A stretch of DNA of 63,599 nucleotides, the filler included, from Hausera hauseri (Eukaryota), in NCBI GenBank assembly GCA_046269625.1. It is 11 parts of 11 records of this genome, joined end to end, with 100 filler letters (N's around TTAATTAATTAA, not from the genome) between each part and the next. Parts side by side here need not be neighbours in the genome. Positions count along the whole stretch, not along the records: positions 58,491 to 63,599 come from JBJURY010332381.1; 10 more parts are not named here. One strand, 5' to 3'. Below, piece by piece: positions 1-63,599 of this stretch. The position numbers were made by a program, and so were the translations under genes. Under the pieces are notes generated by a model, which did no database searches, was not told the origin of the DNA, and saw nothing but the letters and a program-made list of their open reading frames with translations. Every line of letters starts with the position of its first letter. Within the stretch, counting starts at the first letter, position 1.

Positions 1-149
1 GTTAAATACAATTGATCTTCCAATGACTTTGCGCTCTGCTCCTGTCAGTTTGTACAATACATCTGCACAAATTTGAATTTTGGGCTCTCGCCTGGTTAAC
101 AGGTTTCATCCAGTATGTTACCTAAATCTCCAATTCGATATACATGGGT

Positions 150-7880: not shown

Positions 7881-8058
7881 TAGGGATAATTAGGAAGTAT
7901 CATAGGCTCTTTGGAAACAATTACCGTTTTATTACTGATTTGTAACCGGGCTTCTCCTTGATTAATAAATATAGCACATGGCGTGTCGTTTCTTTTAATC
8001 TGAATATCGGTATTCTTTAAATAAATTTTATCAATACCTTCCATACAAATTTATCCTT

Positions 8059-12508: not shown

Positions 12509-14467
12509 ATATGTACATATTGTTATTCATTGTTAATAATTGTTATATAAAAATATCGTGTTGTTCTCTTGATCAAGTAATGTGGATATAGGATAAGACC
12601 AAGTAAAACTAAGTAACTACTATATAGTATAAGGCAAACTAATTTCATAACACATTTATTTTATAACAACATTGACATAACGCTAAACACTTTTTATAAT
12701 GTGTGTGCTTGTGTGCATGTCTGTGTTTGTAAAATGTAAGTGACCTGAGAAAATGTATAGTTCAGATATATGTCTGTGTTTGCCTGTGTGGGTGTATGTA
12801 AAATGTTATTAACTTGGGAAAGGAATTGTCTAAAATATCTGTGTGTGCGTGTCTGTGCTTTTGTCTGTTTTGCGTGTGTTTATGAATGGGTTTGACTGTA
12901 TGTGCGCGTAAAATGCAAGTAATATGGTAAATGCATGACCATAACATACAGTAATATATGGTACAAGTCAATGTATTAATCAATACATTAGAAAATATAC
13001 TGGTAACATGTGTAATATGGGTAATTTGCGGAGGCTAATTATGGCGAATTATAAGTAACATACATCCTATCAATGTAATGCATGTGAAACTAATCAGTAC
13101 ACTAATCAATACATAAATCAATACAATGCATCAATGCAATAATCAATACACTTATCAATAAATCAGTGCAATGCAGCAATACATTATATATACTTTGGTC
13201 TTATTTACTTAACTCTATTCACCTATATATTTAAGCCTATATACCTATATAGCTAACTCCATATGCCTATATAGTTAATCCTATACATGTATTTAGTTTA
13301 TTCTACGCACCTATATAGCTAGCCCTATTGAACTGTCCAAACATATACCATAGAGTGTATCACTTGAAAGGGTTAGGTATAAAAAAAAGTACGTAACATT
13401 ACATTATCATGTTTAAAATATGCAAAATCAAGTTGAACGTATGCATCCAGAATAATTTATAAGGAATATTAAATATTTCAAAACTATACTCCAAGCACCG
13501 AAACGACTCAGATGGAAACTCATTCATATGCTGCCATCTCATGTAATTNNNNNNNNNNNNNNNNNNNNNNNNNNNNNNNNNNNNNNNNNNNNTTAATTAA
13601 TTAANNNNNNNNNNNNNNNNNNNNNNNNNNNNNNNNNNNNNNNNNNNNAGCATGTGAACTCCAGGATTTCGATCCTCCGACTTGGCCGAGCAAAGTCTTC
13701 TTTACTACTTTAGTAAATTAGTAATATGTGAATCAGTGGTGCTGTTATAACTGAAATATCCATTCCATTCTGAATTTGTAATTCCTGCTGAATTATAGTT
13801 CATTGACTGAGATCTGTGATAAATTGATGGACGAATAGCAGAGTGTGGAGTAGTCGACAGATCTCCTGAACCATCACAGAATCCCGAATGCACATTCTTC
13901 CAGGAATGTGATCCGTGAAATGACTGGGAATTAATATCGGTATGGGCCATCAGACCACTGCCATTAGAATAACTGAAGTCACTCTGATAGCTGTTACCAG
14001 GAACCTGACATAAACAACGATGGTGTGAATTCATACCAAAGGCAGTGAGATAAATGGGATGATTTGATTTCTTATTTGAACATTATTCACAATGGTAACT
14101 GGACAGAACGACGTGGGACAAAACAACGCATTGACAAAGCGATGGGGTGACAAAACGACGTCGTTACAAGTATAATTTAATGAAATATTTATAAATGTAT
14201 TATATATTATTAGGTTAGGTTAAGAGGCAAGATTAGACTAGGGTTATGGATATGGATAGGGTTAGTAAACATCATTGATTTTTGACTTTCGGAGTGTGAA
14301 TCGTTTATTTATGATAACGATTTTTCAATATTTTATATTTATTTCATTTTACATTGCTTGTTTCAACCAATGTTGGATAAACTCCTAAACCTAACCAACA
14401 TAAAATGAAATATTTATTAAACACAATCATTATTAAATCATGTTTCACTGCACACCATCCCTATAGG

Positions 14468-16728: not shown

Positions 16729-18020
16729 TTAAAATGGCAATTTAACGAAATACAATCCACACAAACACACCTGGCTAGGACAGTTGTAATTAACTGGATA
16801 CTGGTTGTTATAATGACTGCCACCGTGATTAAGACCCATTTGAATGTCGGGATTAGAATGTTGAGTTTGATACCTGGAAAGCAGATCGACACAGTTGGTA
16901 CCCATCATTAAATTGACGATGTCTTGGGGACTTGCATCGGGATGAGTAGTACCGGTTAATTCGAATCCCGGTGGAGGAGTGGAAAACCCAAACAAATTTA
17001 TCGATACCATTTGTTGTGTGAGCCGTTTTCGGTCGGTCGTTGACGATTTGCCTTGCATGTACGACATATGAGAATTTTAATTGTAATAATCACTACCAGA
17101 CGGAACCATGGACTAGTGAGAATTTGGTCGGAGAATTGATCGTGGTGCGGAAGCAAACAATGTATCGTTGGATACCAATTTGTTAGACATGTAACTGTTC
17201 ATGCCTTGGCTGATTTTCAGACGGTTCTCATTTGCAATGAGCTCTGCCAATCCCTGTCGAGACATACTGATCGAATCAAAGTCAATATCGGCAGTGTCTT
17301 TCCGTTTATGATAAACATTAGCGTTAGATCGATCAGATCGAAAATTTCGTGAATAATCCATAGAGTTCCGGAACGGAAACTGCGGGTATGATGAAACACA
17401 GTTGTTGTTTGCTTGTTGATTGATTCTCTGATCGTATTGATGCCCGACGGAAATGGAACTCTGCGAATTGAGATGATAGAAACTTTCGAGAAGGGCCGGG
17501 GGAGTAGAAGCGATATCTGAATTGATACTGTGTAAAAACGGCGAATCTGAACTTAAGAAGAGTGGCGAATTGGGACCACCGCTTACATCTTCCTTCGTCA
17601 CTGGAGTGTTTGCTTGATATGGATCTGGTGATTCCGATGATGGTTTGATGGTTTCTTTCATCTGACTCAAACTTGGGAAATCTGGTTTGGAAATGGTGAC
17701 TTTTGAAATAAAACTGTTGTCCCCAGATACTGAGTAGATTTTGGTCGCATCTATCGGATCAGTACATATTGGGGTCATGTGAGCACCAAATTTACGAGTC
17801 GTTTTGGTGGTTGAAGATACTGTGATGGAATTCGTGGTAACAGCAGTTGCGGATGAATGACCGGTTGCGCTGGTTTTCCCCTGTGCAGTTTGTATAGAAT
17901 CACTTGATGGTAATTATGGATTGGACGACGTCACAGCCACCGTCGGTGCTGGAGTGCGTTGTGATTCGATGAATTCCTGGATTATTTGAGATTCGAGTAA
18001 TCTTACATTGTTGATGCAGA
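16729..18020 (-). pseudogene. Unassigned interrupted Ser/Thr/Pro-rich reading frame
   Basis: Consecutive minus-strand ORFs (221 aa, 112 aa and an upstream extension) with higher GC than the flanks; no recognised domain. Confidence 0.3.
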
Positions 18021-23717: not shown

Positions 23718-24448
23718 GCATTTCTTCGTTTCGTTAAAGGGGTAAAAATATTCATTAACATGAAAGTAATTAAACATTTCTGCAATTAGCGTCTAGTGAC
23801 AACTTAATGAAATCTAAATTCATTCATGATATCATAAACTGATCGAAGTCACAAATATAATTCATTATTTATGCTATCCAAACGGGAACCTTTGAGGATT
23901 TATGTTCATTACTATTGGTATTTTGGATGTGGATAAGCAAACGCGCATTTGTATGTGTTGATGTCGATAATAAGTCAAAATTTAAAATCAATTGAAGGTT
24001 CCAATTTAATCTAGCAAGGCGAAAACCGTCGGACAATAACTTGATTCGGATTACCTCCTCTCACACTGCAATATTTTGTAAGGCCGAGATCCATCGGGTA
24101 ATGACTATACAACTAGACCCATTATATTGATCATCAACAGCTCCAATAAAATCGTATACTCCGATTACATCTAATAGATTGTTTCCAATGCTATTAATAA
24201 TTATACCGCAAGCGCAACGTGTTTAGTGATACAGGTGCGCTCGAATACAATTGATTATCCACTTAATGGCTCTCTTATCAAGTCAGATATAGATATAATT
24301 ACGTAAATTTATTATTTGACCCGTTCTACAAAATATACACCGAAATNNNNNNNNNNNNNNNNNNNNNNNNNNNNNNNNNNNNNNNNNNNNTTAATTAATT
24401 AANNNNNNNNNNNNNNNNNNNNNNNNNNNNNNNNNNNNNNNNNNNNCA

Positions 24449-26800
24449 TCATGAACAACAATATACGTCATGCCAGTCAAAAAGGAGGTGAGATTCAGTG
24501 ACCGGTCTAAACAGACATTCCGGCATATGTGGTACATGCCGATATAGAGGCAATCCTACCGAGGCACAACGTATACGACTAAAAGCACATACCAATCGCC
24601 GTTGATATGTTGGTTGTTCCAATAAAAGCCGCCGAACAACTGCAATATTACGTTTTTCATGGCTGGAACTGTATACGCCATTTCCTGCAACAGTTGGAAA
24701 CGATAGCAGAAACGGAAATCGCACCGTGGTACAGTAACAATAGCACTAACTCTTGACATGGACAGACGAATATGAACCGCTGCTTTTCGCTGCCATCGAC
24801 AAATGTTACCTCTGCCATAAAATATTGCCTTTTGATGCACAGGAACGGATCGTACAGGACAACGATCATTTTACCGGTCGATTCCTAGGAGCAGCATGCA
24901 ATTCATGCAATTTGGCAATGCGTGTGCGGCCATTTCTACCGGTGATCTTTCATAATTTCCAAGCTTATGATTGTCATCATATACTCAAATGGGACGTCAA
25001 CGGATTTTTGCACTAGGAACTGTTTATAATCCCAACAACAATGGAGAAGTACCTGTCCCTATCAGCAGGCATAAACCGGTTCCAGGTACGCTTCCTTGAT
25101 TCATTGTAATTTTTCAATGAATCACTGGCGAAGCTGGTAAATGCCTTGCCAGATGTGTTAATAGCCTCAATGCAGTTCCCCACAGCAGAAGAATTACCGC
25201 CGCGATTGACAGGTATAGCAGAGGATGAATACCGGAAAGCACAGAGGCGTTGGACAGAACTCGGCTGTAGAAATATGTTGGAGTACATGCTCTAGTATCT
25301 CAAAGTGGACGTGTACTTATTGGCCGATGTGTTCCAAGCGTTTCGGGCGAAAGCATTGGTTGAAGATAGACTGGAGCCACTCAACTTTTATTCCATACCG
25401 GGAATAAGTTGGGCGTCAGCTCTAATGTCACTGGATCGAGACATTGAGCTGCTGTAAGACTCGGAAATGTACCGGCGGTTTGATGTTGGTATTCGCGGTG
25501 GAATGACATTTGTCAACAAGCATTAGGTAAGTGCTACCGATAAAAACATCACTGCTGTATATTGATATTAATAACTTGTACGGCTGGGCGCTTTCGCAAC
25601 CCCTGCCGTACGATTCATTCGAATGGGTTGTCGATGGACAAGATATGGACGACATAATAGTCAACCTACCACGAGCAGACATGGCAGGCTCAGTCAGATA
25701 CCTGATGGAGGTCGATCTCGTGGTACCAGATAAGCTGCATGACGTTTTGTACAATTTACTGGTCGCACCATTTAACCAATATCCGCCAGGCTCATAAGTG
25801 AAAAAACTGCTCATGACGCATGGACTGAAGCTGAATTATGTGGTCCATTGGCGTCTGCTACAGTTCTACATACAGCTCTGTGTACGCGTCACACAGCTGC
25901 ATCGTGCAATCCGATTTGCTCAGGCTCCCATATTCAAGACGTACATAAATGGAAATTCGGAGAAACGAGCCGCAGCTTGGACAAAGTTCGAAAATGACTA
26001 CTACAAAATGAAAAAAAATTCTCTCTACCGAGAAAATTGTGGAGAATCTGAAAAAGCGGCTCAATATACGCCTATACAATAGCGAAAAGCGGTTGGTCAT
26101 GTACACGAGCAAGGCAGAGTTCAGGCGGTCAATGCACATTGCCGATGGATTGGTTGCGGTGCTGTTAAACAGAGAAGTCGTCCTGGACCGGCCAAGTTAC
26201 ATCGGACAAGTGGCATCAGACTTAAGCAAGTTGCGGATGTATGAGCTACAGTATCGCGATTTGGCACGTTACCGACAAATGTTTGACGGCTGTGACATTA
26301 GTATAATTGCCGGTGACACAGATAGTTTTTTCCTGTGGCTGAAGAAAGTCAATCGCGAACAGCTACTGCAGAAAATGAAGTCAGATAGATTACTGGATAC
26401 GTCCAACTAACCACGGGATCATCTGTTGTACAGCAGCGCGGTCACAAACAAAATCGGCTGCTTCAAGAATGGAAGTGAAAGCATGGTTAAGTATCGGAAA
26501 TAGATGTTCCTAAGCCCAAGGTGCTACAATCTTCTGATGGACTGTGGACCGAAAATGCTGGAAAAAGGAGTCCAGCTAAGACACGGAAATCGACCACGGT
26601 GATTATCGCCGTATATATGAAGAAGCGGCAGAAGGAGGACAATCAGTGGCTGTTGTGTCTCAAACGATCATCCGACCAATTGAACACCAGCTGTACACAA
26701 TAACTAGTGCGAAAGTCGCTTTGTCATGTAACGATGATAAGCTCAAGTGGGTGGGGCGAAATAATAGTTTGACGTATGGACATTGGCGGCTGAAAGAAAC
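24449..26800 (+). pseudogene. Second Polinton/Maverick protein-primed DNA polymerase B (frameshifted, different family)
   Basis: CYLCHK..DNDHFTGRFLGAACNSCNL; FHNFQAYDCH; RFLDS; YLKVDVYLLADVF; YIDINNLYGWALSQPLP (A); YYKMKKNSLY (B); AGDTDS (C); LDTSN; NDDK..TYGHW. Confidence 0.93.
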
Positions 26801-27072
26801 GCCCGTCCAAACAATAGGCGCTCTATCAGTTCAGCTCAGTTCGGTTACTCTAACAATCATTGACAATTATCCCATGTTTATTGTTTTTTATATTTCAATA
26901 ACGTATTTTGTTCAATATCTTTTGTGTTTTGGTTTCGGTTACTTACTTAACCTATTATTATTAAGTAAGTAAAAATAAAACAAAAACGTTGCACGAGAAA
27001 ACAAAATATGAAACACGAATACAATTATCTATTGATCGGGGACACTAAAATCACAAAAACACACAAAGTAAG

Positions 27073-27513
27073 TTAAATAATACTAAACTTTCCCATTTTC
27101 CACATTGGAGATTTGACGCCGCTCATTTCCTTGAATCCCTTGAACTTCAGTGTCAGGTAGCCTTTAGCTCCTTCCGGCGGCAAAACCGCCGTTTCGCCTT
27201 CACGTGAACTGACAATTTTCTTTAGATTCCCTTTCAGGAAAATGGACGATGTGTCCCAAATATCATTAGACAGCACCAAATCACTGTCAACCTTTTTAAT
27301 TGTGTCTTCCATTGAGTCCAAATCACTGTCGTTCATCTTCGGTTGTATCATTTTGACCGACTGCGACAATGCCAATTGAATAGGGGTTCGTAGATAGTGA
27401 AAGTTGTATTCATTGTACAACCCGGGATTTTCTGAGCGAATACGGGGTGTACGGAATCGTGGAACTTTCACTTGCTCGAAGGAATTGTTGTTGTTGTGGT
27501 TTACTGAAAACAT
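27073..27513 (-). CDS. Intact Polinton-associated hypothetical protein, possibly an OB-fold ssDNA-binding protein
   Basis: 146-aa ORF convergent with pPolB; its C-terminal beta-rich GYLTLKFKGFKEMSGVKSPMWKM pattern resembles viral SSBs (inference only). Confidence 0.45.
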   Translation of the reverse strand: MFSVNHNNNNSFEQVKVPRFRTPRIRSENPGLYNEYNFHYLRTPIQLALSQSVKMIQPKMNDSDLDSMEDTIKKVDSDLVLSNDIWDTSSIFLKGNLKKIVSSREGETAVLPPEGAKGYLTLKFKGFKEMSGVKSPMWKMGKFSII

Positions 27514-27767
27514 TTTTCTAATGGACAGAAATGAATTTAATTACACCTCTATATATGTGCATATATCAATTGTTTTGTTTATATTACACAAGTGTAACCA
27601 TAGATGTTTACTTTATAAAACGTAAGTCTAAGAAGAGGACACTAAAGAGTACAAATATTTATTAATGTATGACATTACAAATATTCGTCTACAACCTCAC
27701 GCATAGCAGCAGTAACATGCATTTAACGAGTGTTTAAATCATGGAACTGTTGTATAAGACTCAAAAG

Positions 27768-28248
27768 TTATTGTTTCGGTGCTTTTTCCGGTCGTTTGAT
27801 TACTGTTTCTGACTGCTTCCGTGGCGGTAGAATATCCAATAAGTCAAATTTTATGACGAACGTGTCATAATTAACCGGGAGAAGTAATTCCAATTTTGAT
27901 AGTGGAATAAATTTCGGAAATCCACTTACAATGTTGCGTTCGTCTTGTGGTTTCATGAAACATGTTGATCGTAAATCAGTTTTCAATTTATCCGAGCAGA
28001 CAACTTCACATCGTTTATTCAGCAGAGACATTTGAATCGCTGTACCAAAAGGCCGCTGCAACGTATCATCATGTTCACCTTTGACAATTGCAAAGAAAAT
28101 GATAATTGAGTACTTCGTCCAACACCATCACCATGAGATAATTTCGAATACAGAAATTGTACTGTCGGAAACTGAATGAATCACTGGTTACCGTAACACT
28201 GTTCTTTTAGTGTGTAAATTTTTCCAATGTCCAAGTGAAGGTAATCAT
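27768..28248 (-). pseudogene. Stand-alone TRAF-family MATH (TRAF-C) domain
   Basis: MITFTWTLEKF..SDSF..YNFCIRNY/HGDGVGRSTQLS/FFAIVKGEHDDTLQRPF..MSLLN..CFMKPQDERNIVSGFPKFIPLSKL..DTFVIKF. This matches TRAF2/3 GYKMCLRLYLNGDGxGRGTHLSLFFVxMxGExDxLLxWPF..SSSFxRP..MNIASGCP. Intronless, one stop and frameshifts. Confidence 0.85.
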
Positions 28249-28365
28249 AATTATGAAAATAAATGCAAATGTCAACTTTATTTATACTTTTTTTCGGTAT
28301 TGGAAAACTGACATCATCCTCATCATGTTCACATTACATCCAAGTCAGTTAAAATTGATTTTTAT

Positions 28366-28824
28366 TTATTCATAATAAACGTGTACAATTTCCGTTATAG
28401 CGCATTTACATTCTGGGCACTGGGTTACGTTGGAACATTTTTGACATAAAACGACATTCCCACACATTAGAAATGCAGTATCCACTTTTCTTTCTTTACA
28501 TTACACACGTATAAACTGAGAGTTTTGTACTTTGTTCGCTATTTTTTCTTTCATGTTTTTTAATTCACCGCCTAACCGTTCCACTGTATTAAAGTACTTT
28601 GCATCACACAATCGGTGAATGTACATTTGATTTATCGCAGAAATTAGATTTTCTATAGAGTTACAGTCTGCTGCTGCTGATTTTGTTGTCATCAATGCTA
28701 TTGACACTAAATCTTCTTTAAATCCAAAATCCGCTGCTGCTCGTACAACTAAATCACTGTTCCGATGACTCCATATTATCCAAAAATGTTTAGACTGCAT
28801 TAATGATTTCACCAGTTTTAGCAC
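28366..28824 (-). pseudogene. IAP-like UBA + C-terminal RING protein (no BIR seen)
   Basis: VVRAAADFGFKEDLV (UBA MGF-like loop), a coiled segment, then in the same frame past the 28501 stop: CKERKVDTAFLMCGNVVLCQKCSNVTQCPECKCAITEIVHVYYE*, an IAP-type C-terminal RING. Confidence 0.75.
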
Positions 28825-29290
28825 ATTTCACTCGTGCTTTTCAATTGTATTAATTCCGAAAGTGATAATTCATTAAAATTTTGCAGTTGTTTCAATTGAT
28901 CTACATTTTCTATTATTATTTACATTTAAAACCTACCTGTATTTTTAGTTTTAAACAAATCAACCAATCATTCAAATTGCGTCTGAAACATGTTTAAATA
29001 AATGAAAAACAAAATACACACGTACATATGCATTTATTTAATTGAAACAGTTTATACAAATCGCTAAACATTTTTTGTAGGCACAATGCGGTCCATGTTC
29101 ACGATATGGACACGTAATATTGTCAGGTACCATCATTATTTTAGAGTTGGTCGATGTTAAATACGTCGTCATTCGCAAGTCGGGAAATTGNNNNNNNNNN
29201 NNNNNNNNNNNNNNNNNNNNNNNNNNNNNNNNNNTTAATTAATTAANNNNNNNNNNNNNNNNNNNNNNNNNNNNNNNNNNNNNNNNNNNN

Positions 29291-30153: not shown

Positions 30154-31453
30154 CACAGTATGGCAATAAAGTTCCCCAACTTGTTTTATTATTTCACAAG
30201 GAAAAATAACACAATAATGCTAACTGCAGTGAATAAATCTAGGATGTCTTGTGCATGTCATGAAAAAATGTTATCTTTGCATCATTAGTCATGCATGAGT
30301 TAATCATAATTTCATTTATTGTGATTTTGTGTTATGTTTAGCTTGTAATATGGAACAAAAAGCAGTAATAAAATTTTGTTTTAATGTACAAAAATCGGCC
30401 ACACAAACTTTTGACATGCTGGAGGAAGCATATGAAGATAAAGCTATGTCCAGATCAAGTACTTTTGAATGGTATAAAAGATTCCAAAATGATCGAGAAT
30501 CTTTAGAGGATGATGAAAGATCTGGCGGTCCTTCAACTAATCTAGATGATATGGCGAACTCTGTGCGTGCTTTTCTTGCAGAAGACACCATTTTGACATT
30601 CCGTGAAATGAGTGAATGTTTGAAAATGAACAAGGGAAGCATTCTATTAATAATTCATGAGGATTTGAACAAACGGAAGACTTTTTCTCGGCTTGTTCCT
30701 CACTTTTCAACCATGAAACAAAAGAATCCGTGAGTGTCCTACTGCTGCGATTTGGTGGAAACAACTGACACTTCAGCGAATTTTTTGAATTCAATCGTTA
30801 CTGGTGATGCATCTTGGTGTTTCAAATACGATCCACAGACAAAGCGTCAATCATAAGCCTGGCTTAGTCATGACGAGTCACGACTACAAAGGTTCGAATA
30901 CAAAAATCGCGAGTCAAAATGATGCATATTGCTTTCTTGATGGAAAAGGAATTATGCATCATGAATTTGTTCCAGAGTGGCAAACGGTGAACGGACAGTT
31001 CCAGTAATGAAGCGTCTAATGCAGCACATCACATGTGCCAGATCTGATTTCATCCGTTCTGATGAATGGTTTTTACTTCATGATAACAGACCGGCGCACA
31101 CACCCACATATGTATTGCATTATTTAGCAAAAAAAAACAAGTTACCGTACTTAATCATCCTCTTTATTCACTAGAATTGGCACCAGCCGTTTTTTTATAT
31201 TTCCAAAGTTGAAACTCCATCTTAAATTTCGAATGTTTGATGATGTTGATGCCATTAAAACAACTGTGACAAGGGAATTAAAGGAAATTTCGGAAAACTA
31301 GTTTTCTGATAGCCTTCGGTCGGTGTAACGTCGTGAAAAGTTGTGTATGGAACGAGGAGGGGAGTATGCAGAAATTTAAGTAAATTAAGATTTCGGAATG
31401 TAATTGTTTCATGTTTCATTCACACAGACCGGGAACTTTATTGCCATACTGTG
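30154..31453 (+). mobile_element. Full-length mariner (1300 bp), defective transposase
   Basis: Perfect TIRs CACAGTATGGCAATAAAGTTCCC / GGGAACTTTATTGCCATACTGTG, TA duplication on both sides; KAVIKFCF..EWYKRF..RLVPH, IVTGDASWCFKYDP, LLHDNRPAH, YSLELAP. Confidence 0.95.
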
Positions 31454-34757: not shown

Positions 34758-35494
34758 AACAGCACAGCTGCATACTATTCGTTAGTCACTCCCAGGGAAT
34801 CTAATGCTCTCAACTGGGCCTCAAGACTATCATATAACTGAGCAGCAGTCTGTATTTTATCATTCTTCAAAACTAAATTCAATAGTTCACGAACATAATA
34901 TTCAATTAAAAATTCATCTTTACCAAATCTAGATTTTAAAAGCTCAATCGCTTTCTCATAGTTTTCTTTTGAAGGTGGAAACCCTTCTAATAATTTATAA
35001 GCCGGAGAATCTGGCTTCATACTTTGAAACAGATAATCAAATTTATCCTCTGGGGTAAGGCTGTCATCTTCGTGAATTTTAGAAAACTGCGCCCAAAATC
35101 CAATCCAGCCTTTAAAATCCCCATCGTATTTTTTGAGCTCAATTTTTGGTAAACGAACTTGTAATTTACGAGCGTTAACCACAACGTGATTTGTTGAAGT
35201 TTCAGGATTCTTCTCTAGATTATTTATTAGATCCCTTATCTTATAAAATTTAATGGAGTAGTCACCAGCTTTAATCATCTCATCCTCTATTTCTTCATCT
35301 GGTATATCTTTCGTGACAAGCAGCTCCGAATAAATCTTCTCATCAACAGCCTTTAATTTTTCATATTTATCTGTTAACGATGCAAATGGTACTGATATTT
35401 CAGCTCTATCTTTTATTTCCTTGCCCAAGAATTCAGTCAAATTATTACATTCTCGGGTGAAAACCGAACGTAGAATACGTCGATCCATAATCAC
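34758..35494 (-). pseudogene. gag: BEL/Pao gag, 5' part (DUF1759-type)
   Basis: VRLPKIELKKYDGDFKGWIGFWAQFSKIHED..EDKFDYLFQS..NYEKAIELLKSRFG; premature stop at 34775; starts just after the PBS. Confidence 0.9.
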
Positions 35495-35548
35495 GTTTTA
35501 CTTCTAAATCGAAACTAAAAGAAACAATTTACTTCTAATATAAACAGG

Positions 35549-35566
35549 GTCCTGTCGCGGACGCCA
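35549..35566 (-). promoter_or_regulatory. Primer-binding site, tRNA-Arg-like
   Basis: TGGCGTCCGCGACAGGAC begins 2 nt after the LTR-terminal CA and is close to the complement of the tRNA-Arg(UCG) 3' end. Confidence 0.75.
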
Positions 35567-35568
35567 GA

Positions 35569-35792
35569 TGTGGCGAACTGGTTCCAAATGAATTAATACC
35601 AATTCGAGAAAAACATAATCATATTTATTTAGCTGAAAATAATTCACAATTTAACATCGTTCTTTTTAACAGAATCTGCCGATGAGTCGTAGCTCGTTCT
35701 AAAATCAAAACATTAAGAGTGTTGCCATTCGGCGGGAAACAAATATGTGGCAATTCAGATACATGGGGAATAAATAAACAGTATTTCCAACA
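35569..35792 (-). repeat. BEL/Pao LTR (224 bp) between pol of one copy and gag of the next
   Basis: On the minus strand: PPT GGTGGGGAGAA, then TGTTGG...AATAAA...GCCACA, then the PBS. Confidence 0.85.
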
Positions 35793-35878
35793 TTCTCCCC
35801 ACCTTGCAAAATTCTAATTTTGCAATACTTACCAAAATCTTTAAAAATTGTAAAAATAAAATTTAAAAGTCACAGAGT

Positions 35879-38656
35879 CTATAAAGTCAGTTTTCTGGGA
35901 GGACGAACTTCTCTGCCTACACGAGTCTTATAAGTGGTCTTTGTACTAGGCTCGTTACGTCGTGAAGACTTCATAACTCGATTCATCTGCGGTGTTGACT
36001 TTTCTTCCCCAGGTTTCTTGAGATCAAAAGGAATTGTGGTTGATTTAGGATCCAGTTCAATCGGAAATAAACGCTGGACAGGTCTCAGTAGATATCCTGA
36101 TGATGTTTTTAATTTTGCAAGACGTACAATATCATCTTTGCCAGGAAAGAGTTCAACTACTCTAGCTAACATCCAGTCTATACGTTTCTTATCTTCAGAT
36201 CCGATTAACACGATGTCATTCACCTTCACTGATTTCGTTTGATCCCTGGGAGTGCTACGAAGAAAGCCCAAATATTCTCTTTTGAATCGACTTCTAAGTC
36301 CATCCCTAACTCGTTGTAAGTATTTCCATCTTTCTACTAAACTGAAATTTTGAATTTCATCAAGATCGGATACATCGTTATTAGTTAAACTTTGGAGAAA
36401 CATAGATGGTTGCAAAGGTGTTAAATCACTTCCATCTTCTGAAATGTATGTCAAGGGTCTGTTATTCATCAAACTTTCACATTCGCAGAGAAGCGTTAAA
36501 AACTCTTCATAATCTAAACAGGCATGGCCTAAGTTCTTTCGAAGGAGATCTTTCAATATTCTTATTAACCTCTCCCAAAAACCTCCCCACCATGACGCCG
36601 TAGGAGGATTAAATTTCCATTTCAATTTTTTCAAACTACATTTCTTCTCAATTTCAGTCCAGTCTAGTTGATTCATGGCTTTATTCAGACCAACAAAATT
36701 AGTTCCATTGTCCGAATAGATAACATCGACACGACCTCTTCTGGCAACAAATCTCCTAAGAGCTTCCAAGAATGATCCAGAGGTCAGAGAAGTAACTAAT
36801 TCCAAATGAACTGCCCTAAAAACGGCACATGTAAAAATTACAATCCAGGCCTTCTTTCTTTCCTTTAAATAAACTGGGCCTGCTAGATCTACGCCGGTAA
36901 TTTGGAATGTGTTGGACATTTTAACTCTATCTTCAGGGAGAGGAGGAAAAGGAACTTCAAAAGCCTTCGCTCTGCTTCGCTGACACGTAACACACCTTTT
37001 CACAATAGATCGTACAGTCTTTCTCCCCTGAAGAATCCAAATTCTTTCTCTAATGATCATCAAAAGCGTTTGAGTTCCAACATGATTATATTTCAGATGA
37101 AGTTGTTCGATCATTCGTTCCACAATTACATTTTTAGAAGGTAGTATTATAGGAAATGTATATTCATGTGTATCTTCATTATCCACAACTCGAGATTTCA
37201 TGCGCAAAATATCATCTTTGTCTGTAAAAATTTGAAGATTTTTCAGATCAATCTTTCTTTGCGTGTCAGTAAAAGCATCCTTTTGAATTAAGCAAAATAA
37301 ATTTTTCTCCGCCTTCTCAAACTCTTCAACTGATATATCAGGGTAATTTTTACTTCGGCGGCAAGCAGGTCTAAATCTTAACATCCAAGCAACAGTTCTT
37401 ACAATCATTGTATATTTAGAAAATCTTGAAGCAAGTTTAGTGAGGATCTCTTCACCTACTGTAGTAATTGCTGACACAACTGTACGCCGTCTCTCCTTGT
37501 TAATTTCTTCCAAGTCAGAAATAGAGTCGTTCGAAGGCCAGTTTTCGGGAGGCTCTTTCAAGAAAGTTGGACCTGTCCACCAATGAGACTTCAAAAGTTG
37601 TAATGGTGAACATCCTCTCGACAGTATATCAGCTGGATTTAGAATACTTGGAACGTGTTTCCAACATCCGGTCTTGCTGTGATCTTGTATTTCCCTTACT
37701 CTATTTTCAACAAACACGGACCAGCTATTTCTCTTTTTCAACCATGCTAAAACTACAGAAGAGTCTGACCAAAAGTATTTAGTCAGTTCTACACTCTTTA
37801 AACATTTAAGTGCCAATTGATGTAGTCTAACTCCAAGAAGTGCGGCCATCAGTTCGAGCCGAGGTAAAGTAATCTCTTTCAGAGGTGCAACTCGTGATTT
37901 AGCCAATATAAGATCTAAATATACTTCATCATTTTCCTCTGTTCTTAAAAATATGCAAGCACCATACGCAGATTTGCTGGCATCACAGAAGACGTGTAAA
38001 GAGCTTGTAGAATTAAGGTGAATTCTTCTGGGAATTCGGCAATCATTCAAATGGTGTATTTCAGCAGACCATTTTCTAAATTTTCTTTGTATCTCTTCGG
38101 GCAGCTCGTCGTCCCAGTCAGATTTCAACTTCCATGATTTCTGTAAAATGATCTTAGGAATTAAAACGGCAGGCGCAGTGAAACCCACTGGATCAAATAT
38201 TCTCTCAATACGAGAGAGCACCATGCGTCTGGTACAAGGTTCACTCAGGGGTATTATTTTACATCCAAATTCATCTGATGGGCGATACCATTGAAGACCC
38301 AAAATATTGTCTGCACATTCATTAGCATCTAGGCTACTTATCCAACCTCTAAGGTTAAATCCGGCTGAAGACATTAAAATTGTAGCTTCTTTAATAAAAC
38401 TCTCCACCTCTTTGTCATGAGATACACCAGTTAGACAATTATCCATATAAAATGTACCCTTCAGTTTTTGGAGATTTTAACTGTATGTTCAGGAGGATTT
38501 TCAATTAAGTGGTTCAAGCAAGATGAGAGTAAAAATGGACTGCTACAAACTCCGAAAACTACTCTGCAATGGCGTAATTCGATCACCTTTTCCCTTTTCC
38601 ACCACAGGAAACGAAGAAAATCTCTGTCATTGGGATCTACCTCGATCTGCAAAAAG
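35879..38656 (-). pseudogene. pol: BEL/Pao pol (RT C-part, RNase H, integrase), one frameshift near 38465, 5' truncated
   Basis: AFLQIEV..RDFLRFLW..RVVFGVCSSPFLL, FYMDNC; HVFCDASKSAYG, LPRLEL, WSDS, NPADILSRG; HLKYNH..CVTC; GVDLAGP, YSDNGTNF, WGGFWERL. The 855-aa part is open. Confidence 0.95.
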
Positions 38657-51642: not shown

Positions 51643-51918
51643 CTAAATTAGTGACTTACCAATAAATTTTCCGTAGCCACCAAAGCCAGGGAAACCAAAA
51701 CCACCGAAAGCTCCAAGCCCATAACCGAATCCAAGACCTCCGAGCCCATAACCACCAAATCCATAACCACCAAGTCCATAACCACCAAGTCCATAACCAA
51801 GTCCATAACCGCCAAGTCCATAACCACCAATACCATATCCAATTCCAGGGAAAGCAATGGCATCGGAACTCAAGGACAAAGTGGCAACAATAAGTGCAAC
51901 AAGAACGAGTTTGTACAT
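51643..51918 (-). CDS. Small secreted Gly/Tyr-rich protein (GGYGL repeats)
   Basis: ATG 4 nt after a pyrimidine-rich acceptor TTCCTCTTCCAG|; signal peptide MYKLVLVALIVATLSLSSDA; GGYGL/GGYGF repeats. A GGTAAGT donor at GKFIG suggests the true C-terminus may be spliced. Confidence 0.85.
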   Translation of the reverse strand: MYKLVLVALIVATLSLSSDAIAFPGIGYGIGGYGLGGYGLGYGLGGYGLGGYGFGGYGLGGLGFGYGLGAFGGFGFPGFGGYGKFIGKSLI

Positions 51919-53278
51919 GATCTGGAAGAGGAAACACAATATAATTGAAAAATAAAGACATTTTCTGCCTACGTCATTTTTTGTGTGTTAATTCTGTTTT
52001 GTAATTCCTCTCTGCATTTATTTTTAATGTTTATACGCTTCTTTCTTTCATTCAGTTTTCTCGGCTCAGGTTTGTTTTTTTATTTGTACACGTTCCTTGT
52101 CTTCTGTCATCGTTTTCTTCAGCTTTTCTTTATTCATTTTTATTTTCTGTCTTTCCTTTTTTCTCTTCTCCCTTTCCATCCACGATTGTTCCATGGTCTT
52201 TTATTCTTCTTCGTGGGGAGTAAGGGCTGACAGTTTTTGGATGTCTCAGTCAAGGGAATCCTACCTTCACGAAGTCCTTCGTGTACTTTTGGTGCTTCCC
52301 TTTAGGAACATATAGGGCTCTGCTGACTCATCTGGTACTTGAGCAGGATGAGGTGTCCATCGGCCGCTCCTACTTATTGTCCATATCCTACTGAATGCAA
52401 AGTTCAGACGATGATTCAGTTACAAGAACCTAGACTGTGCCGTAGACAGCTGCTCGAGGACTGTGTGCTACATGGATGACGGGCAGTACTCGATCCCATG
52501 TTTCATGTGTACAAAAACTGCCCTGCAGCGCATGGGCCTGACCACTCAAGGGGATGCTCCGTGATTTGCCTTGTATCTCGGAAAACGCCCATCACGGAGT
52601 GGACCTGTCAGAACGCAGATCAGACTCTTCTTTCTCGTACATTCTTTGCCTTTTTACTTTTTCTCCATTCTTATCTTTAAATATCTTTCTTTTTCCCCAT
52701 TTTTCTTTATTTCCTCGCGTACTCTCTTTCTGTTTAACCAAAGTTCGTCTTGTTTTTTTTTCTTTGTTCTATTATTTTCTTTTAAATCTCATTAATATTT
52801 TCACTTGTCTTCTTCCTTTTGATCTTGTTCCCATTCACAGCTTATTTATTATACAACTTAAACTTTGTCACATACAATTATGAATGCCGTAGGAAAATGA
52901 AGTGTTAGTGCCTTAATTTTTATAGGCTTGGCTTTGTGAGTAGGCACGCCACAACCTTTCTCGCTGCATTTATTTCCCATGTTTTTATCCTCGTACCCAT
53001 TTCAGGCTGGGCAAACCTAATATCCGGCGGCCGGAATATTTATTATAAATATTAACAAAAACGCCAACACTACCACCACCACGAACAACAGCAATGATAA
53101 TATCATATTATGATTATTTTTATTATTATTAATAATTTTTTATTATGGACTCAAGGAACGAAAAAAAAATGTGTACACNNNNNNNNNNNNNNNNNNNNNN
53201 NNNNNNNNNNNNNNNNNNNNNNTTAATTAATTAANNNNNNNNNNNNNNNNNNNNNNNNNNNNNNNNNNNNNNNNNNNN

Positions 53279-58490: not shown

Positions 58491-58905
58491 ATCACTAAGT
58501 TTTTCAAGGCTTTATAAATTTTTCTCACAACACTCAAATGGTTGTCGTTGAATGTCATCCGTAAGAAATCGTGGCACAAATCGTGAACACAATTTCCTGA
58601 TGCCCATTTCACTGAGTAAGTTATGCAACATACCTTTGGCGATATTTAGACGTTGAGCCAGATCTCTTGTCACAATACGACTGTCTGTAATGATGGTTTC
58701 CTGCAGCATTTCTTCTCATTTCCAATTTCCACTGGTCTTGCAGACTTTTCCAAATCAAAGACACTTAAAATCTCGAATCCAGTTGTAAATGGTTGCTTTA
58801 CAAGGGCACTCACTTTTGTAAACGTCCTGCAGTTGTACAATAATTTCTTGGCTGCTTGTTTTTTTCAAAAGCAGAAACTTTATGACGCTTCAAAACTGAA
58901 CATTA
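58491..58905 (-). mobile_element. Mariner transposase N-terminal fragment
   Basis: IKFCF; VFDLEKSARPVEI; DSRIVTRDLAQRLNI..MGIRKLCSRFVPRFLT (WVPxxL motif). Confidence 0.8.
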
Positions 58906-59224
58906 TCTGACATTTTATGACGAAATATTGAAATAGCACAATTTTTTGACAAAACAAAAGTAGCTTATGTATGTATGTGTGTGTTAAGAAGGAATTCATT
59001 CTTGTACCGTGATGTTCTTTATTCTAGCACTATGACACTGAGCAAGGACGTACTGAAAATTTTTTATCATAAATAATTTCAGAAACCAATTTAAGGGGAA
59101 TTTGTTTCTCTGAATTGTTTCGTTTATGGAGTTAATCGATTTGGCAAATGAACGACTCCAATACATATTTGTAGTTTTAGATAATGTATTGTGTGAAAAT
59201 GAGTAACTTTCGGAAACTTATCCC

Positions 59225-59530
59225 CATTCGATTTTCAAATGGTTCATGCAAGTACACTAATTTACTTTTAAGAACAGATTTGATCGAACATTTGCATTCT
59301 GATGATATTTGTTACGCTGATTTCAAATATATAAATTATTTTTGCTCTTTTCAAAATCTCCTTAACTATTAACAATATAAGTTTATTGTCAATATTTAAG
59401 GAAATTTTGGATAAGAACAAAAATAAGTTAGATATTTGAAATCAGCTTAATAGTAAACGTCAGCATTCAAATTTTCAGTCAAATCTGTTCTTAGGAGCAA
59501 ATTTGTGTCCGTTGTGAGGTTGAAAAATGT
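59225..59530. repeat. Foldback MITE-like palindrome (~300 bp)
   Basis: AAGAACAGATTTGA..GCTGATTTCAAATAT..ATTTTTGCTCTT mirrored by AAGAACAAAAAT..ATATTTGAAATCAGC..TCAAATCTGTTCTT around a centre near 59380. Confidence 0.75.
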
Positions 59531-60209
59531 CATCCTTGTCCTAACATTTGAAGACTTAGTCCTGATTGCATAGAAGAAAATATTCGTGGAACCATGAACG
59601 GTCTTAAATATATTGACATTCTCAAGAATGTTCTTTAATTTATCTTCCTGCGCAATGGAACTCGAAACCCTACTGCAAAATCGACTATGAAGTTTCTGAC
59701 AGATTAAGCAAACCTTAATGTTTTCCCATGATATGAATCCCATCAATGAATTCGGTAAGTTATTAGGACAAGTATGTCAAATGTTGAAAAATAAGATTTT
59801 CAGAATATAATTTGCTTTTACTCTATTTAATTCCCAAATTATTTTTTCATATATTTATGCATTTATTGTATTCCCATCATGGAAATATTCATTATGGCTA
59901 TTTTATATCATTCTTTTTTTTATAAATTTTCGGTTGAAAGTTTCACCATTAATATTCTATTGATATTCCTTGGAACTATATAACATAAGCTGTAGAGTGT
60001 AGAGTGTCAACGGAATATTATATTTCTGATTTCTGAAGGAAGAGTAACATTAGATTACGAAGTAAAAAATCGAGTATTAGCAGAAAAGTGACGATAAAAA
60101 GGAAGCATTCCTGTAAAATTCTCAAAAATGCCTAGCAAAGTATTTAGTGGGAGTATAAATGTCTGCAAGAAAATATTGGGACACCCAGTATAAAATACAA
60201 ATATAATAC

Positions 60210-63200
60210 ATGATAAATAGGGTCGTGAATAGTTTACCAGTCATCCATTTTCGTCTTTTGTGGAGATGGCTTACCACAATTCCTATTTCAGCATTCCTCG
60301 AAGATATTGTAATAGCCGAACAGAAGATGTACATAATCCAGGTGATAAAGCAATGGATTGCGAAGGTTACAGCTGATGAGCACTGCAATTCTCGAGCGAA
60401 GTTAATCGCATGGCAAGATGAACTGGACATGTACTTACAGCGATTGCGGGTATTGGAAGTGTTGTACAAGAACAATTTGTTAGAAGAATGTGATGACACA
60501 TACATAACTAATCACCTTCCATTGATTCTGAAAATGATTGTCGAACAGTCGAATGAGTTACCTAGCGATAGACTCAGTAATGTATTTAATGCAGTATTTC
60601 AAATCATGACAATAACCGGCATCGATCCTATCGCGTTCTGCACGGACTTTATTAAAGCTGTCCTTAAATTAGACAATACCCATAATGGAGATTTATCCAT
60701 GTCCATGGATCAAGACTCGATACTTTGCAATAGTATCTTAGACTCATCTGCAGAAGATGTTAAGAGTTCATTTGACGAAGAAATCAATCTGACTCGTTCA
60801 CTGTTACTCATGTCCGACACCGATGTCAAACAACAGGTCGCCAGCAAATTATTTCAATTCGCTAGTGAAAATTGCCTAACAATGAGTCAGCTAAATACCT
60901 TATTCCAACTGTTGTTCCAGAGTTTTTTGACTGGAGCTGATGTATTACTCGTTATTGAGATGTCAAGTACCGGTGATGTTGCATGTTTTGGTGAGGACCG
61001 TTATGAAGCTTCCTTGAAGGCTCAGTTGGCACAGGGTCTTAAGTTTCCAAAACAAAGGGGAACTATTTTGTTATTCGTTGGTAGCTATAAACACAAAATG
61101 GAACTACTCGAAAGAGTAAAAAAATTTCCCAAGTTAGGATATCAATTAGTGGGCAGCATGGGTATGGCTGAATTTTACATCGAAAATGGAATAAAAATGA
61201 TTCCCGTTGATTGGGCAAACGGCGAAGAAAGTCAAGGCGATATCGATTCTAGATTGAAAACTGTAAATGATTATATTCGAGAAAATAAAATTGAATTGCT
61301 TATCAATTTACCAAAACGAAGTTCTGGATTAAGAAAAGCTTCATGTACTTCTACACAGAGTTACAAAAGTCGACTATTGGCTGTTGTTCATGGCGTCCCT
61401 TTACTTACAAAGGTAAAATGTGTGAAAATGTTTGTGACTGCAGTCGCCAAGACTATTTATCGTAACAAAACTTTTACAGCAGATCCAAACATCGTTGGCG
61501 AGATCGATTACGAAACGAGACTATTGTTGGATAGCTATGCAAAATATTTTGATATTCCTTTTATTACTTGGAGTAGTCCGTTTGAAATTCCAAATTCGTC
61601 ATTTTTTACGAAACGACCGTGTCAAATCTTTATTGTTCAACCGGATCTAACAATTCCGTTGATCAGCTTTCTAAAAAAATGGGAATGGACTAGATTTATT
61701 TACGTTTATCGTAGTGAATATAGTTTTTATCGAATGAATAAAGTACTTCAGCAGTTGTTCGATGAAGAAGGTGTTAATAGTAGTTTCGATATATTGCCGG
61801 TACATTTACCGATTGATGAAAAAGGGATGTTCCGTAATTTGAGACTGTTAGACAAACGCATATCTCATCTCAGTAACAGACGACTTGTAATTGACATTGA
61901 CGGACGGGAAGAATTGGAGGATCTGTTGCGGTGCCTAAAATTATTGGGAATGATGAGACACGAGTATCATTATTTGATGGTTAATTTTCGAATTATGCAG
62001 CTACCACTGAGTTCTTTCAAATCGAGTCGAGTTAATATTACCGGATTTCATATTTTAAATTATCTTGATCAAGACACGAGAGGGTTCATTACCAAATGGA
62101 CGAGATTGTTGGGTGATGAAGAATTATCGACAGTGTCGTTCATTTTAGACGTTTTCAGAGTGATTCAAAGTCTCTTTACCAATAGACGGTTTCGTTATCC
62201 TCATCAGGTTCAATATGATTTCGATTGTAATTCGTTTAAATTCATATCCAAAGAATCAAATACCCAACAATCCGAAGACTTTTTGTCTTATCGCAAATCA
62301 ATCAATACTGTTGGACAGACGGGATCCATCGCCTTCGACAACAAAACCTGTAGTCGAACGAATGTCACAAGTTTGTTAACGAAATTTAATGGTCAAGGAG
62401 GTGGTGAGTTGGTAGCCCATACAAATACTGATAACGCATGGAAACTGTTTTCCGGATCAGAGAAATTTCGAGACGGACAAACGTCAGTTTCAAAAAACAC
62501 AAGCCAAGTACTTCGAGTTGTAACAATCATGCAAACACCGTTTGTGATGTACGCTCCAAATGTAGTTGGAAAACCGAAATCTGGTAAAGCAAACTTTCAA
62601 GGGTTCTGTATCGAATTGGCCGAACATATTTTTCGATTAATCAATCGGTCGTATGAAATACATCTCGTGAAAGATGAATCATGTGGTGCATTCCCCAAGG
62701 AAAACCAAACTTGGAACGGAATGGTTGGAGAGTTAATCCGTGGTGAAGCCGATGTGGTTATTGCACCGTTGACTGTAATTCCCGAACCTTTCATGACATT
62801 TGGCTTATCTCTTATAATGAAAAAACCGGTCGAAACCAAACCGGGATTTTTCAGTTCCATGAAACCGTTATCGGATTATGTAGGGATTGGAACCGGAAGT
62901 GCATGTTTACTAATTGCTACTGGTCTTAGAATTATTGCCCACATAAGTCCATACGAATGGAAACGAGAGAATCCGTATAATAGAATTTATCAAATTATGG
63001 GAAAAGACCCGTCTGTGTATACGAATACCATTGATGAAGGTGTTGATAGAGTCCGAAGGGAACCTGGAAAATATGTGTTCATCTTGGAGTCAAAGATGAA
63101 TGAATATAAAAATAACATAAAGCCGTGTGATACAATAGTGGTTGGCTCGTCATTTGGCAGTAAAGCGTATGCTGTTGCAACAAGGTCAAATGACAAGGAA

Positions 63201-63599
63201 ATAATCAGAAATCCAAAACTATTTGTTATTCAGGTCGAACAGGATGTTTTTCTGTTAGCTTTAAAATGGTTGTATCTTAATATGTTTCCGAACGAAACGA
63301 AATTTACTAACTATCTTACACAGGTTGCTCAAAACTATCTTAGATCAGATGATTGCTTATCGGAAATCTACCAAGCAACTATCAGTTGTCAGAAACTTTT
63401 TGAGGTTGTTCGGTGGGATAATATTATTTCTTCTTATAATACTGCTTCGTCTTTGACGAAATTCCACGTCATTCAAAAACATATTCTAGTGAACGCTTTC
63501 AAAAATCAGTGGCTCATTTTACTTAAGTATCGCGGACCTCCTGCCAATTTAGATTCTTTATTATTTTGGAAATTCAGTAAACGTTGTAATCGTCTTTTT
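60210..63599 (+). CDS. Chimeric intronless ORF of at least 1130 codons, open at window end: unknown N-part + CAD/CPS MGS-like domain + iGluR ATD/S1/M1/S2 pieces + germ cell-less BACK-region piece
   Basis: Manual translation from ATG 60210 shows no stop to 63599. GADVLLVIEMSSTGDVACFGEDRYEA..GSYKHK..INLP..KCVKMFV (CAD, ~60930-61450); RVVTIMQTPFVM..GFCIEL..WNGMVGELIRGEADVVIAPLT..SPYEW, EGVDRVR..YVFILES..KPCDT (iGluR, ~61490-63185); LFVIQVEQDVF..LKWLYL..NQW (GCL, ~63195-63535). Confidence 0.8.
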   Translation, partial: MINRVVNSLPVIHFRLLWRWLTTIPISAFLEDIVIAEQKMYIIQVIKQWIAKVTADEHCNSRAKLIAWQDELDMYLQRLRVLEVLYKNNLLEECDDTYITNHLPLILKMIVEQSNELPSDRLSNVFNAVFQIMTITGIDPIAFCTDFIKAVLKLDNTHNGDLSMSMDQDSILCNSILDSSAEDVKSSFDEEINLTRSLLLMSDTDVKQQVASKLFQFASENCLTMSQLNTLFQLLFQSFLTGADVLLVIEMSSTGDVACFGEDRYEASLKAQLAQGLKFPKQRGTILLFVGSYKHKMELLERVKKFPKLGYQLVGSMGMAEFYIENGIKMIPVDWANGEESQGDIDSRLKTVNDYIRENKIELLINLPKRSSGLRKASCTSTQSYKSRLLAVVHGVPLLTKVKCVKMFVTAVAKTIYRNKTFTADPNIVGEIDYETRLLLDSYAKYFDIPFITWSSPFEIPNSSFFTKRPCQIFIVQPDLTIPLISFLKKWEWTRFIYVYRSEYSFYRMNKVLQQLFDEEGVNSSFDILPVHLPIDEKGMFRNLRLLDKRISHLSNRRLVIDIDGREELEDLLRCLKLLGMMRHEYHYLMVNFRIMQLPLSSFKSSRVNITGFHILNYLDQDTRGFITKWTRLLGDEELSTVSFILDVFRVIQSLFTNRRFRYPHQVQYDFDCNSFKFISKESNTQQSEDFLSYRKSINTVGQTGSIAFDNKTCSRTNVTSLLTKFNGQGGGELVAHTNTDNAWKLFSGSEKFRDGQTSVSKNTSQVLRVVTIMQTPFVMYAPNVVGKPKSGKANFQGFCIELAEHIFRLINRSYEIHLVKDESCGAFPKENQTWNGMVGELIRGEADVVIAPLTVIPEPFMTFGLSLIMKKPVETKPGFFSSMKPLSDYVGIGTGSACLLIATGLRIIAHISPYEWKRENPYNRIYQIMGKDPSVYTNTIDEGVDRVRREPGKYVFILESKMNEYKNNIKPCDTIVVGSSFGSKAYAVATRSNDKEIIRNPKLFVIQVEQDVFLLALKWLYLNMFPNETKFTNYLTQVAQNYLRSDDCLSEIYQATISCQKLFEVVRWDNIISSYNTASSLTKFHVIQKHILVNAFKNQWLILLKYRGPPANLDSLLFWKFSKRCNRLF

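Follow-up and report, generated by a model that had tools for sequence, protein, structure and literature searches.

How does one open reading frame (ORF) come to carry parts of several unrelated host genes, and is such a frame a real part of the genome in which it is read? The question is raised by an ORF at the end of a 63,599-nucleotide stretch of DNA from the Hausera hauseri assembly GCA_046269625.1, referred to here as the window. The window strings together short contigs, with 10 N44-linker-N44 spacers between them, and contigs that are neighbours in it are therefore not linked to the ORF. The last contig, JBJURY010332381.1, begins at 58491 and contributes 5.1 kb. Its frame is free of stops from 60207 to the window end, with an ATG at 60210, which gives an ORF (60210-63599) of at least 1130 codons that is open at the window end and has its 3' end beyond it. 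The computed chance of so long an open frame at the regional base composition is about 1e-36. An earlier note, made from the sequence alone, had described a stop-free frame of at least 1130 codons that unites pieces of CAD, a glutamate receptor and germ cell-less (GCL), and had left the choice between a real multi-gene chimera and a computationally spliced gene model. Both the length and the composition are borne out, the latter by Pfam, structure and GMCL1 matches, and the ORF is confirmed as genuine and not a spliced gene model. It is genomic, multi-copy and intronless, and it unites, in sense and in one frame, fragments of at least three identified host genes and of one further gene. The earlier note had missed both the many copies of the stretch and its flatworm type.

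The ORF in public sequencing runs

Seven public runs with seven organism labels contain part of the stretch, two of them with at least half of its words. No RNA run with the stretch was listed, which has no bearing on its expression. Four of the seven, X1 to X4, which come from separate studies, were compared. Contig totals of 0.6-1.6 Gb, longest contigs of 43-109 kb and the cover of flank and repeats point to the runs being DNA. Two long contigs listed for X4 stand at 35-38x, and the window itself may derive from X1. The run labels were considered as a record of host range and rejected, as X3 and X4 hold fragments at 2-5x and all runs are of one year.

A join was counted as bridged when a contig held at least 31 letters on both sides of it. 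By this measure the inter-piece joins at 60926, 61492 and 63198 are bridged by X2, by X2 and X4, and by X2 (record 14), respectively, and X1 misses the rule by a single letter at both 61492 and 63198. Within the receptor piece, two contigs bridge the smaller deletion at 62778, namely record 6 of X1 (0 differences, depth 219) and record 13 of X2, and record 23 of X3 (62792-63096, 2 differences) bridges the larger one at 62970 (nt ~62973). X3 also bridges a 15-nt-shorter form at 63522, its record 24 lacking the 15 nt and being identical to the window (0 differences). The junction-spanning check that the earlier note had proposed, run here on public contigs, thus finds every inter-gene join and both large deletions bridged. 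The runs compared list no joint by which a part of the ORF is skipped, and none within it that is intron-like. Since contigs of other studies cross the internal joins and no such skipping joint is listed, the spliced-model artefact is rejected for the internal joins, and the bridged joins support the real chimera. The joins themselves had been broadly placed at ~60925, ~61470, ~62970 and ~63190, and are corrected to 60926, 61492, ~62964-62975 and 63198.

The ORF belongs to a family of related copies. In X1 the depth of ORF contigs is 209-250 against 3.8-4.3 in low-depth contigs, a ratio of 51-66 that serves as a proxy for copy number. Loose ends lie at 60292, 60926, 61492, 63198 and 63347 (among 24 of 220 listed), those of sister forms exactly at the joins, and their continuations, judged by eye, run on in frame: as CAD coding sequence upstream and downstream of the CAD piece at 60926/61492 (by comparison with P0046 and P0054), as upstream GCL-like sequence at 63198, and as open frame at 60292. 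The likeness of the X1 loose end at 63198 to GCL is tentative. Junction 63347 was not counted as a deletion, as a diverged contig of low depth may be the source of its loose end. At 61492 in X1 a stem of depth 272 gives a receptor branch of 209 and leaves ~64 for the branch that continues into CAD, and at 60926 the corresponding depths are 224 and 154, with ~70 left. The form that continues into CAD on the 3' side also occurs in X3, even though cover of the stretch there is limited to fragments at 2-5x. From these remainders and the X3 form, the longer-CAD forms appear to be multi-copy too, and the ORF appears to be one recombinant within the family. A read-through transcript of neighbouring genes, one origin that the earlier note had offered, is unlikely because the joins lie inside coding sequence and sister forms extend into CAD or GCL at the same points. 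No chimeric relative was found among the best 150 of 2602 matches in a 50% library, and the whole ORF had no match among metagenome contigs.

Composition of the ORF and state of its pieces

As read from its sequence, the ORF consists of a helical segment of ~212 aa without a donor match, the MGS domain of CAD, an AMPA-type receptor and a GCL fragment. Pfam places MGS at residues 298-400 (E 5e-11), ANF_receptor at 440-712 (2e-14) and Lig_chan-Glu_bd at 767-873 (7e-23). Coordinates of all features are collected in Table 1.

The deep, multi-copy part begins near 60292 and not at the ATG. In X1 the depth is 3-7 up to 60200 and higher beyond, the loose end before 60292 continues the frame with other letters, and no bridge over this 5' join is seen among the pieces listed (31 of 948). 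The helical start of ~240 aa described by the earlier note is helical, on a weak model, and is shortened, with its first 27 codons in low-depth sequence, to a repeated part of ~212 aa. The predicted structure has ten helices at a pLDDT of 50.5, which is low confidence, and feature matches in the Atlas score 0.88-0.91 to several unrelated HEAT families. Residues 28-239 have no Pfam family; protein searches matched 0 of 1476 candidates of 430-2000 aa and 0 of 468 of 30-620 aa; the PDB sequences gave a single chance match (E 0.038) and Foldseek nothing at E <=0.001. A wide VIA search, for which the query was the pLDDT-50 model, reached a best Z of 7.4 with none at Z >=8, and there was no match in viral contigs. 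A likeness to Dopey/DOP1, echoed in one Atlas row at 0.88, is a tentative suggestion.

The CAD piece (residues 240-427, 188 codons) shows 35-45% identity to 23/23 CAD-type matches. The CAD set of glutaminase, two ATP-grasp, dihydroorotase (DHOase) and aspartate transcarbamylase (ATCase) domains is not there, the piece being limited to 188 codons with the MGS domain, and the product would be without carbamoyl-phosphate synthetase (CPS) activity.

The nearest intact relative of the receptor piece is the protein P0002 (64% identity over matched stretches), and the best solved structure for the ORF is GluA1, over residues 435-920 and 930-1022. Compared with P0002, the piece is without the first 79 aa and without all that follows residue 996, M4 included, and Pfam Lig_chan is present in P0002 and not in the ORF. 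M2, M3 and M4 are absent, and the S1-S2 ligand site is broken by the 9-aa and 98-aa losses. The 9-codon loss removes the glutamate-binding arginine of AMPA receptors, and the larger lost stretch includes the GST motif, which also binds glutamate in them. The earlier note's reading that the receptor part has no signal peptide, lacks ~9 aa after APLT, the M2-M3 pore and M4, and cannot be a channel holds, a residual M1 being its sole remaining membrane segment. The product would thus be predicted to have neither channel nor glutamate-binding activity. By hydropathy, the ORF has no hydrophobic signal-peptide-like N-terminus; TATA-like words stand directly upstream of its ATG.

The receptor tree was built on 226 columns and 72 rows (the ORF and 71 receptor matches of 800-1000 aa), shorter and longer matches and CAD matches being left out. 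It places the receptor piece with P0002 (support 0.984), then with P0003 of Anoplocephala (0.997), and next outward with P0004 of Macrostomum and P0006 (0.984). On this tree the receptor donor is a flatworm, and a planarian or triclad host is probable, as judged from the flatworm tree, the AT-rich DNA and a Burro-type contig in the window.

For the GCL fragment the sole match up to E 10 is that of residues 998-1107 to Germ cell-less protein-like 1 (9ijj_4C, E 4.9e-4); in a large protein set 0 of 70 candidates matched, and none did in the Atlas.

Table 1. Features of the ORF and of its 5' flank on the last contig of the window.
Feature	Position	Strand	Remarks
First 27 codons, ATG at 60210	60210..60290	+	low depth; may be flank read in frame, outside the repeated unit
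All-helical segment, ~212 aa, residues 28-239; HEAT or solenoid-like at best	60291..60926	+	low-confidence model
CAD fragment: end of CPS ATP-grasp region and MGS-like allosteric domain	60927..61490	+	Pfam MGS, CAD-type homology
AMPA-type receptor fragment: most of the amino-terminal domain (ATD), S1, M1, late S2	61491..63197	+	residues 428-996, 64% identity to P0002
9-codon in-frame loss after APLTV (nt 62778)	62775..62783	+	comparison with P0002; structure alignment
Residual M1 helix, sole receptor membrane segment left	62880..62936	+	hydropathy peak 1.65 vs 1.98 in P0002
~97-98-codon in-frame loss after SPYEWKR: M2, M3 with YTANLAAF motif, S2 start (GSTKE motif)	62964..62975	+	vs P0002
GMCL1 (germ cell-less) fragment from beyond the BTB domain, cut off by the window end	63198..63599	+	residues 997-1130
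Polymorphic 15-nt in-frame indel	63522..63523	+	extra 15 nt in X1 (depth 403/419) and X2 (20/20)
Low-depth flank	59517..60200	.	X1 depth 2.7-7; record 1 (59885-60142) depth 3.8, 0 differences
Element like a miniature inverted-repeat transposable element (MITE), 103-nt arms 80% complementary, separate high-copy repeat	59254..59508	.	X1 depth hundreds to thousands
Decayed mariner-like remnant, separate high-copy repeat	58560..58904	-	tblastn E 0.001, 22% (weak) to mariner ORF 30299-30730

Probable selection on the frame and proposed origin of the ORF

The frame appears to be kept while the amino acids drift. All five joins or indels with the frame known on both sides are in frame, (1/3)^5 = 0.004, and at 5-10% drift from the parents 5-18 stops are expected and 0 are seen. 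Two low-depth X1 contigs, at 60341-60779 (depth 4.3) and 63313-63594 (depth 7.1), differ from the ORF by ~10% and are candidates for the parent genes of the helical piece and GCL, or for old copies. Copy variants at 12 sites in the ORF (among 40 of 143 listed) comprise 4 synonymous and 8 non-synonymous changes and 0 stops; the neutral expectation is 21-34% synonymous, which the listed variants fit. Near-invariant columns have been changed in 14/49 cases in the CAD piece, where the 23 references reach 19% at most (median 4%), and in 12/37 cases in the receptor piece, against 7/37 in P0002 and 5/37 in P0003. Radical changes are commoner on the ORF branch with 6/6 outgroups. An open frame kept with relaxed protein constraint is moderately supported.

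With modest confidence, we lean towards an origin in which host mRNA fragments were captured by template switching in a multi-copy retroelement, with selection mainly on the open frame. A carrier of the long terminal repeat (LTR) type is fairly probable, and a carrier specifically like Burro, the giant planarian retroelement, is a possibility to be held tentatively. Spliced host mRNAs would have been co-packaged in LTR retrotransposon particles, in which reverse transcriptase would have switched between templates, adding one fragment at a time and making internal deletions. Sister elements would then bear longer CAD or GCL pieces, and this ORF would be one recombinant of them. Capture of the mRNA type is suggested because no intron-sized insert is apparent in the 569 receptor codons, which have 1 residue opposite a gap in P0002, and because all identified pieces are sense. 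Selection on the open frame could have acted in either of two ways: ribosomes may have to pass the cargo to reach a downstream gag/pol, as in Burro ORF1, or poorly translated RNAs may be destroyed by PIWI or nonsense-mediated decay (NMD) surveillance in stem cells. SMEDWI-1 is described as turning poorly translated transcripts into PIWI-interacting RNAs (piRNAs) in planarian stem cells (PMC10954484). With pol downstream, or for escape from SMEDWI-1, an open frame would be needed.

Several points weigh against this origin. No LTR, primer site, gag or pol is found in the contig's 5.1 kb. No gag, env or protease, reverse transcriptase, RNase H and integrase set (PR-RT-RH-IN) occurs in the 1130 codons seen, the ORF being open at its 3' side and other forms continuing on the 5' side. 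None of the Burro cargo domains (MATH, BIR, BCL2, ankyrin, Smc, midasin, SUMO-like) is in the ORF codons seen, and spacers stand between the ORF and the window's Burro-like contig, which has no sequence in common with it. The support that intronless pieces lend presupposes donor genes with introns. At each join only one parent side is visible. No listed piece (31 of 948) covers the whole ORF, contig depth is a proxy and not a true copy number, and the library type is off record. The in-frame statistic is biased, the ORF having been chosen for its length, and the 5-10% drift rests on the two X1 contigs (43 differences/439 nt; 32/~280 nt), be they parents or not. Some of the CAD erosion may reflect how fast the lineage evolves, as the controls included no labelled flatworm CAD, and 1 of the 14 changed CAD columns sits at a join. 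Relative-rate tests on the receptor piece gave 34 vs 26 (p 0.37), 21 vs 19, 28 vs 29, 29 vs 17 (p 0.10) and, with two outgroups, 32 vs 17 (p 0.044), so that 2/6 are significant. Some contigs carry frameshifting indels within the ORF, at least three in all (12 of 19 indel rows listed): -2 nt at 60496 in X1 (depth 18/162), and +1 at 62491 (7.3/7.3) and +1 at 63426 (10/23) in X2.

Other origins change the carrier or the object of selection. A DNA carrier (Helitron, Pack-TIR, Polinton-like or another DNA virus, integrated or episomal) that took up processed cDNAs or intron-poor pieces and was amplified would account for the high depth, as any mobile carrier would; contigs with PolB of the Polinton type occur in the assembly, one of them bearing RING and MATH genes on the opposite strand, and Pack-TIR (terminal inverted repeat) capture has been described in animals (PMC8277862). 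None of the identified pieces, however, holds an intron, all are sense and in frame, the ORF has no terminal repeats around it, and its N-terminal piece is unmatched in viral contigs, which leaves this origin unlikely. The Helitron or Pack-type exon capture that the earlier note had put forward belongs here: it fits poorly with 569 receptor codons that have 1 residue opposite a gap, and it is kept as part of the DNA-carrier alternative. A host chimeric retrogene, multiplied through tandem or segmental duplications and favoured for a novel protein function (for example as a decoy for receptor subunits, bound through the ATD, or through contact with the ubiquitin-ligase pathway of GCL), would agree with 1130 codons free of stops, with the ATG and the TATA-like words upstream, and with a receptor piece that is not significantly faster than P0002 with 4/6 outgroups; the captured anti-apoptotic domain of Burro1 is said to aid its host (PMC13465017). 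Near-neutral copy variants, eroded invariant residues, frameshifted forms, sister forms with other breakpoints and an N-terminus unlike a signal peptide make such a gene quite unlikely.

Retroposition driven by a long interspersed nuclear element (LINE), with template switches or 3' transduction, a 5' truncation at ~60292 and a poly(A) beyond the window, would explain the intronless state and a 5' side that meets low-depth flank while other forms go on in frame upstream. Several mid-exon switches with repeated amplification are, however, the pattern of LTR-mediated capture (PMC5131818), and no poly(A) or target site duplication (TSD) is visible, the 3' end lying outside the window; we consider this origin improbable. 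Least credible, with a very slight chance, is an over-merged spliced model or an assembly mosaic of repeat variants. The window does concatenate short contigs, no listed contig covers the whole ORF, and 60292 is unbridged among the listed pieces. Against it stand the joins bridged in other studies, the want of any intron-like joint listed in the ORF, and branch depths of 154/224 and 209/272, which imply that some copies hold both the N-terminal piece and the receptor.

Capture by template switching, if it took place, invites a wider and doubtful idea: a planarian giant retroelement family could have a modular cargo lane that samples mRNAs, keeps in-frame pieces and amplifies them tens of times regardless of function. 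The ORF would then represent a raw, pre-selection stage of the process that yields useful captures such as the anti-apoptotic domain of Burro1, and such a family would keep giving rise to new multi-gene fusions and to small RNAs directed at the donor genes.

Neighbouring elements and known systems

Upstream of the ORF, Pfam finds no family, gag and pol included, in six frames of 58491-60300. The 5.1-kb contig part has no long direct repeat, and no terminal repeat or TIR pair stands around the ORF start, the sole long inverted repeat being a separate 255-bp element. That MITE-like element is also present in X2 and X4, and the mariner-like remnant has an X1 depth of ~1200-1400.

Elsewhere the window holds several elements on other contigs. 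On the minus strand, 1-8058 is a decayed gypsy element whose fusion glycoprotein, of the mononegavirus type (at 3917-5807, in three pieces of Pfam Monjiviricetes_fusion), lies upstream of protease-like, reverse transcriptase, RNase H and integrase segments; stops and frameshifts break the element, and the order of its segments matches the layout described for Burro (PMC6431247). A Polinton-like remnant occupies 24447-29190, with an endonuclease VII match and PolB-like frames on the plus strand and, on the minus strand, RING (C3HC4_3) and MATH domain frames and a 155-aa ORF. A second, broken Polinton-type DNA polymerase B region lies at 9990-12367 on the plus strand (weak DNA_pol_B_2, E 2e-4). 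A Pao/BEL retrotransposon at 34775-38476 (minus strand) has a DUF1759 ORF and, in an open stretch of 865 aa, Peptidase_A17, an integrase zinc finger and DUF5641. Ser/Asn/His-rich open frames on the minus strand at 13708-14082 and 16732-17913, the longest without a Pfam match, look like exons of a host regulatory gene. At 51646-51987 (minus strand) a small protein that combines GYGLGG repeats with a hydrophobic N-terminus looks arthropod cuticle-like; the assembly may contain DNA of more than one animal.

Each identified piece is clearly homologous to its donor (AMPA-type receptor, CAD or germ cell-less), whereas the ORF has no pore, M3 or M4, a broken ligand site, the allosteric end of CAD only, and GCL without the BTB domain in the part seen. 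Partial, intronless coding pieces of several parents, as in retrocopies of the Bs1 type, are present in the ORF. LTR-mediated retroposition yields partial, intronless, sense pieces of several genes and secondary rounds (PMC5131818). The mouse 'Super' retrocopy of four genes resembles the ORF in its partial, intronless, sense pieces and in secondary retroposition, and among older LTR-mediated animal retrocopies 14/21 have loss-of-function changes, whereas here the frame is open and the amino acids drift (PMC5131818).

The fusion is not described in the literature found, subscription journals being mostly outside its coverage. Multi-gene capture by retroelements is known; the four-part, one-frame, ~50-fold amplified and protein-drifting animal variant appears to be new. 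Most animal multi-gene captures are single or decaying copies, and an amplified open fusion with drifting residues would allow selection on translation to be told apart from selection for what the protein does. Such a fusion would also make testable the gain of domains by giant Burro-type polyproteins and the filtering of cargo by frame through RNA surveillance in planarian stem cells. For annotation, the caution is that repeats of this kind can be mistaken for additional paralogues of the glutamate receptor, CAD or GCL when flatworm gene sets are compiled.

Burro and maize Bs1 are the closest systems. Burro, a gypsy-like LTR retrotransposon that is reported to be expanded in land and freshwater planarians (PMC13465017) and receives a passing mention in PMC11410931, has an LTR-flanked internal region of up to 25 kb and an ORF1 of ~4900-5100 aa with host-like domains and env between gag and pol (PMC6431247). 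The ORF shares with Burro/GYPSM1 a flatworm host, many copies, host-like domains in one very long ORF and a varying cargo (PMC6431247, PMC13465017). It differs in having crippled CAD, receptor and GCL pieces in place of the MATH, BIR, BCL2, ankyrin, Smc, SUMO-like and midasin cargo, and no gag, env, pol or LTR in the stretch seen. Maize Bs1 likewise has one hybrid, LTR-borne ORF with partial segments of three unrelated host genes (PMC13317346, PMC5131818), whereas the present ORF is from an animal, has four segments and at least 1130 codons, and is ~50-fold amplified, with LTRs not in the stretch. By analogy, we claim that the ORF may work as Bs1 or the cargo of Burro does, and we assert no membership in Burro.

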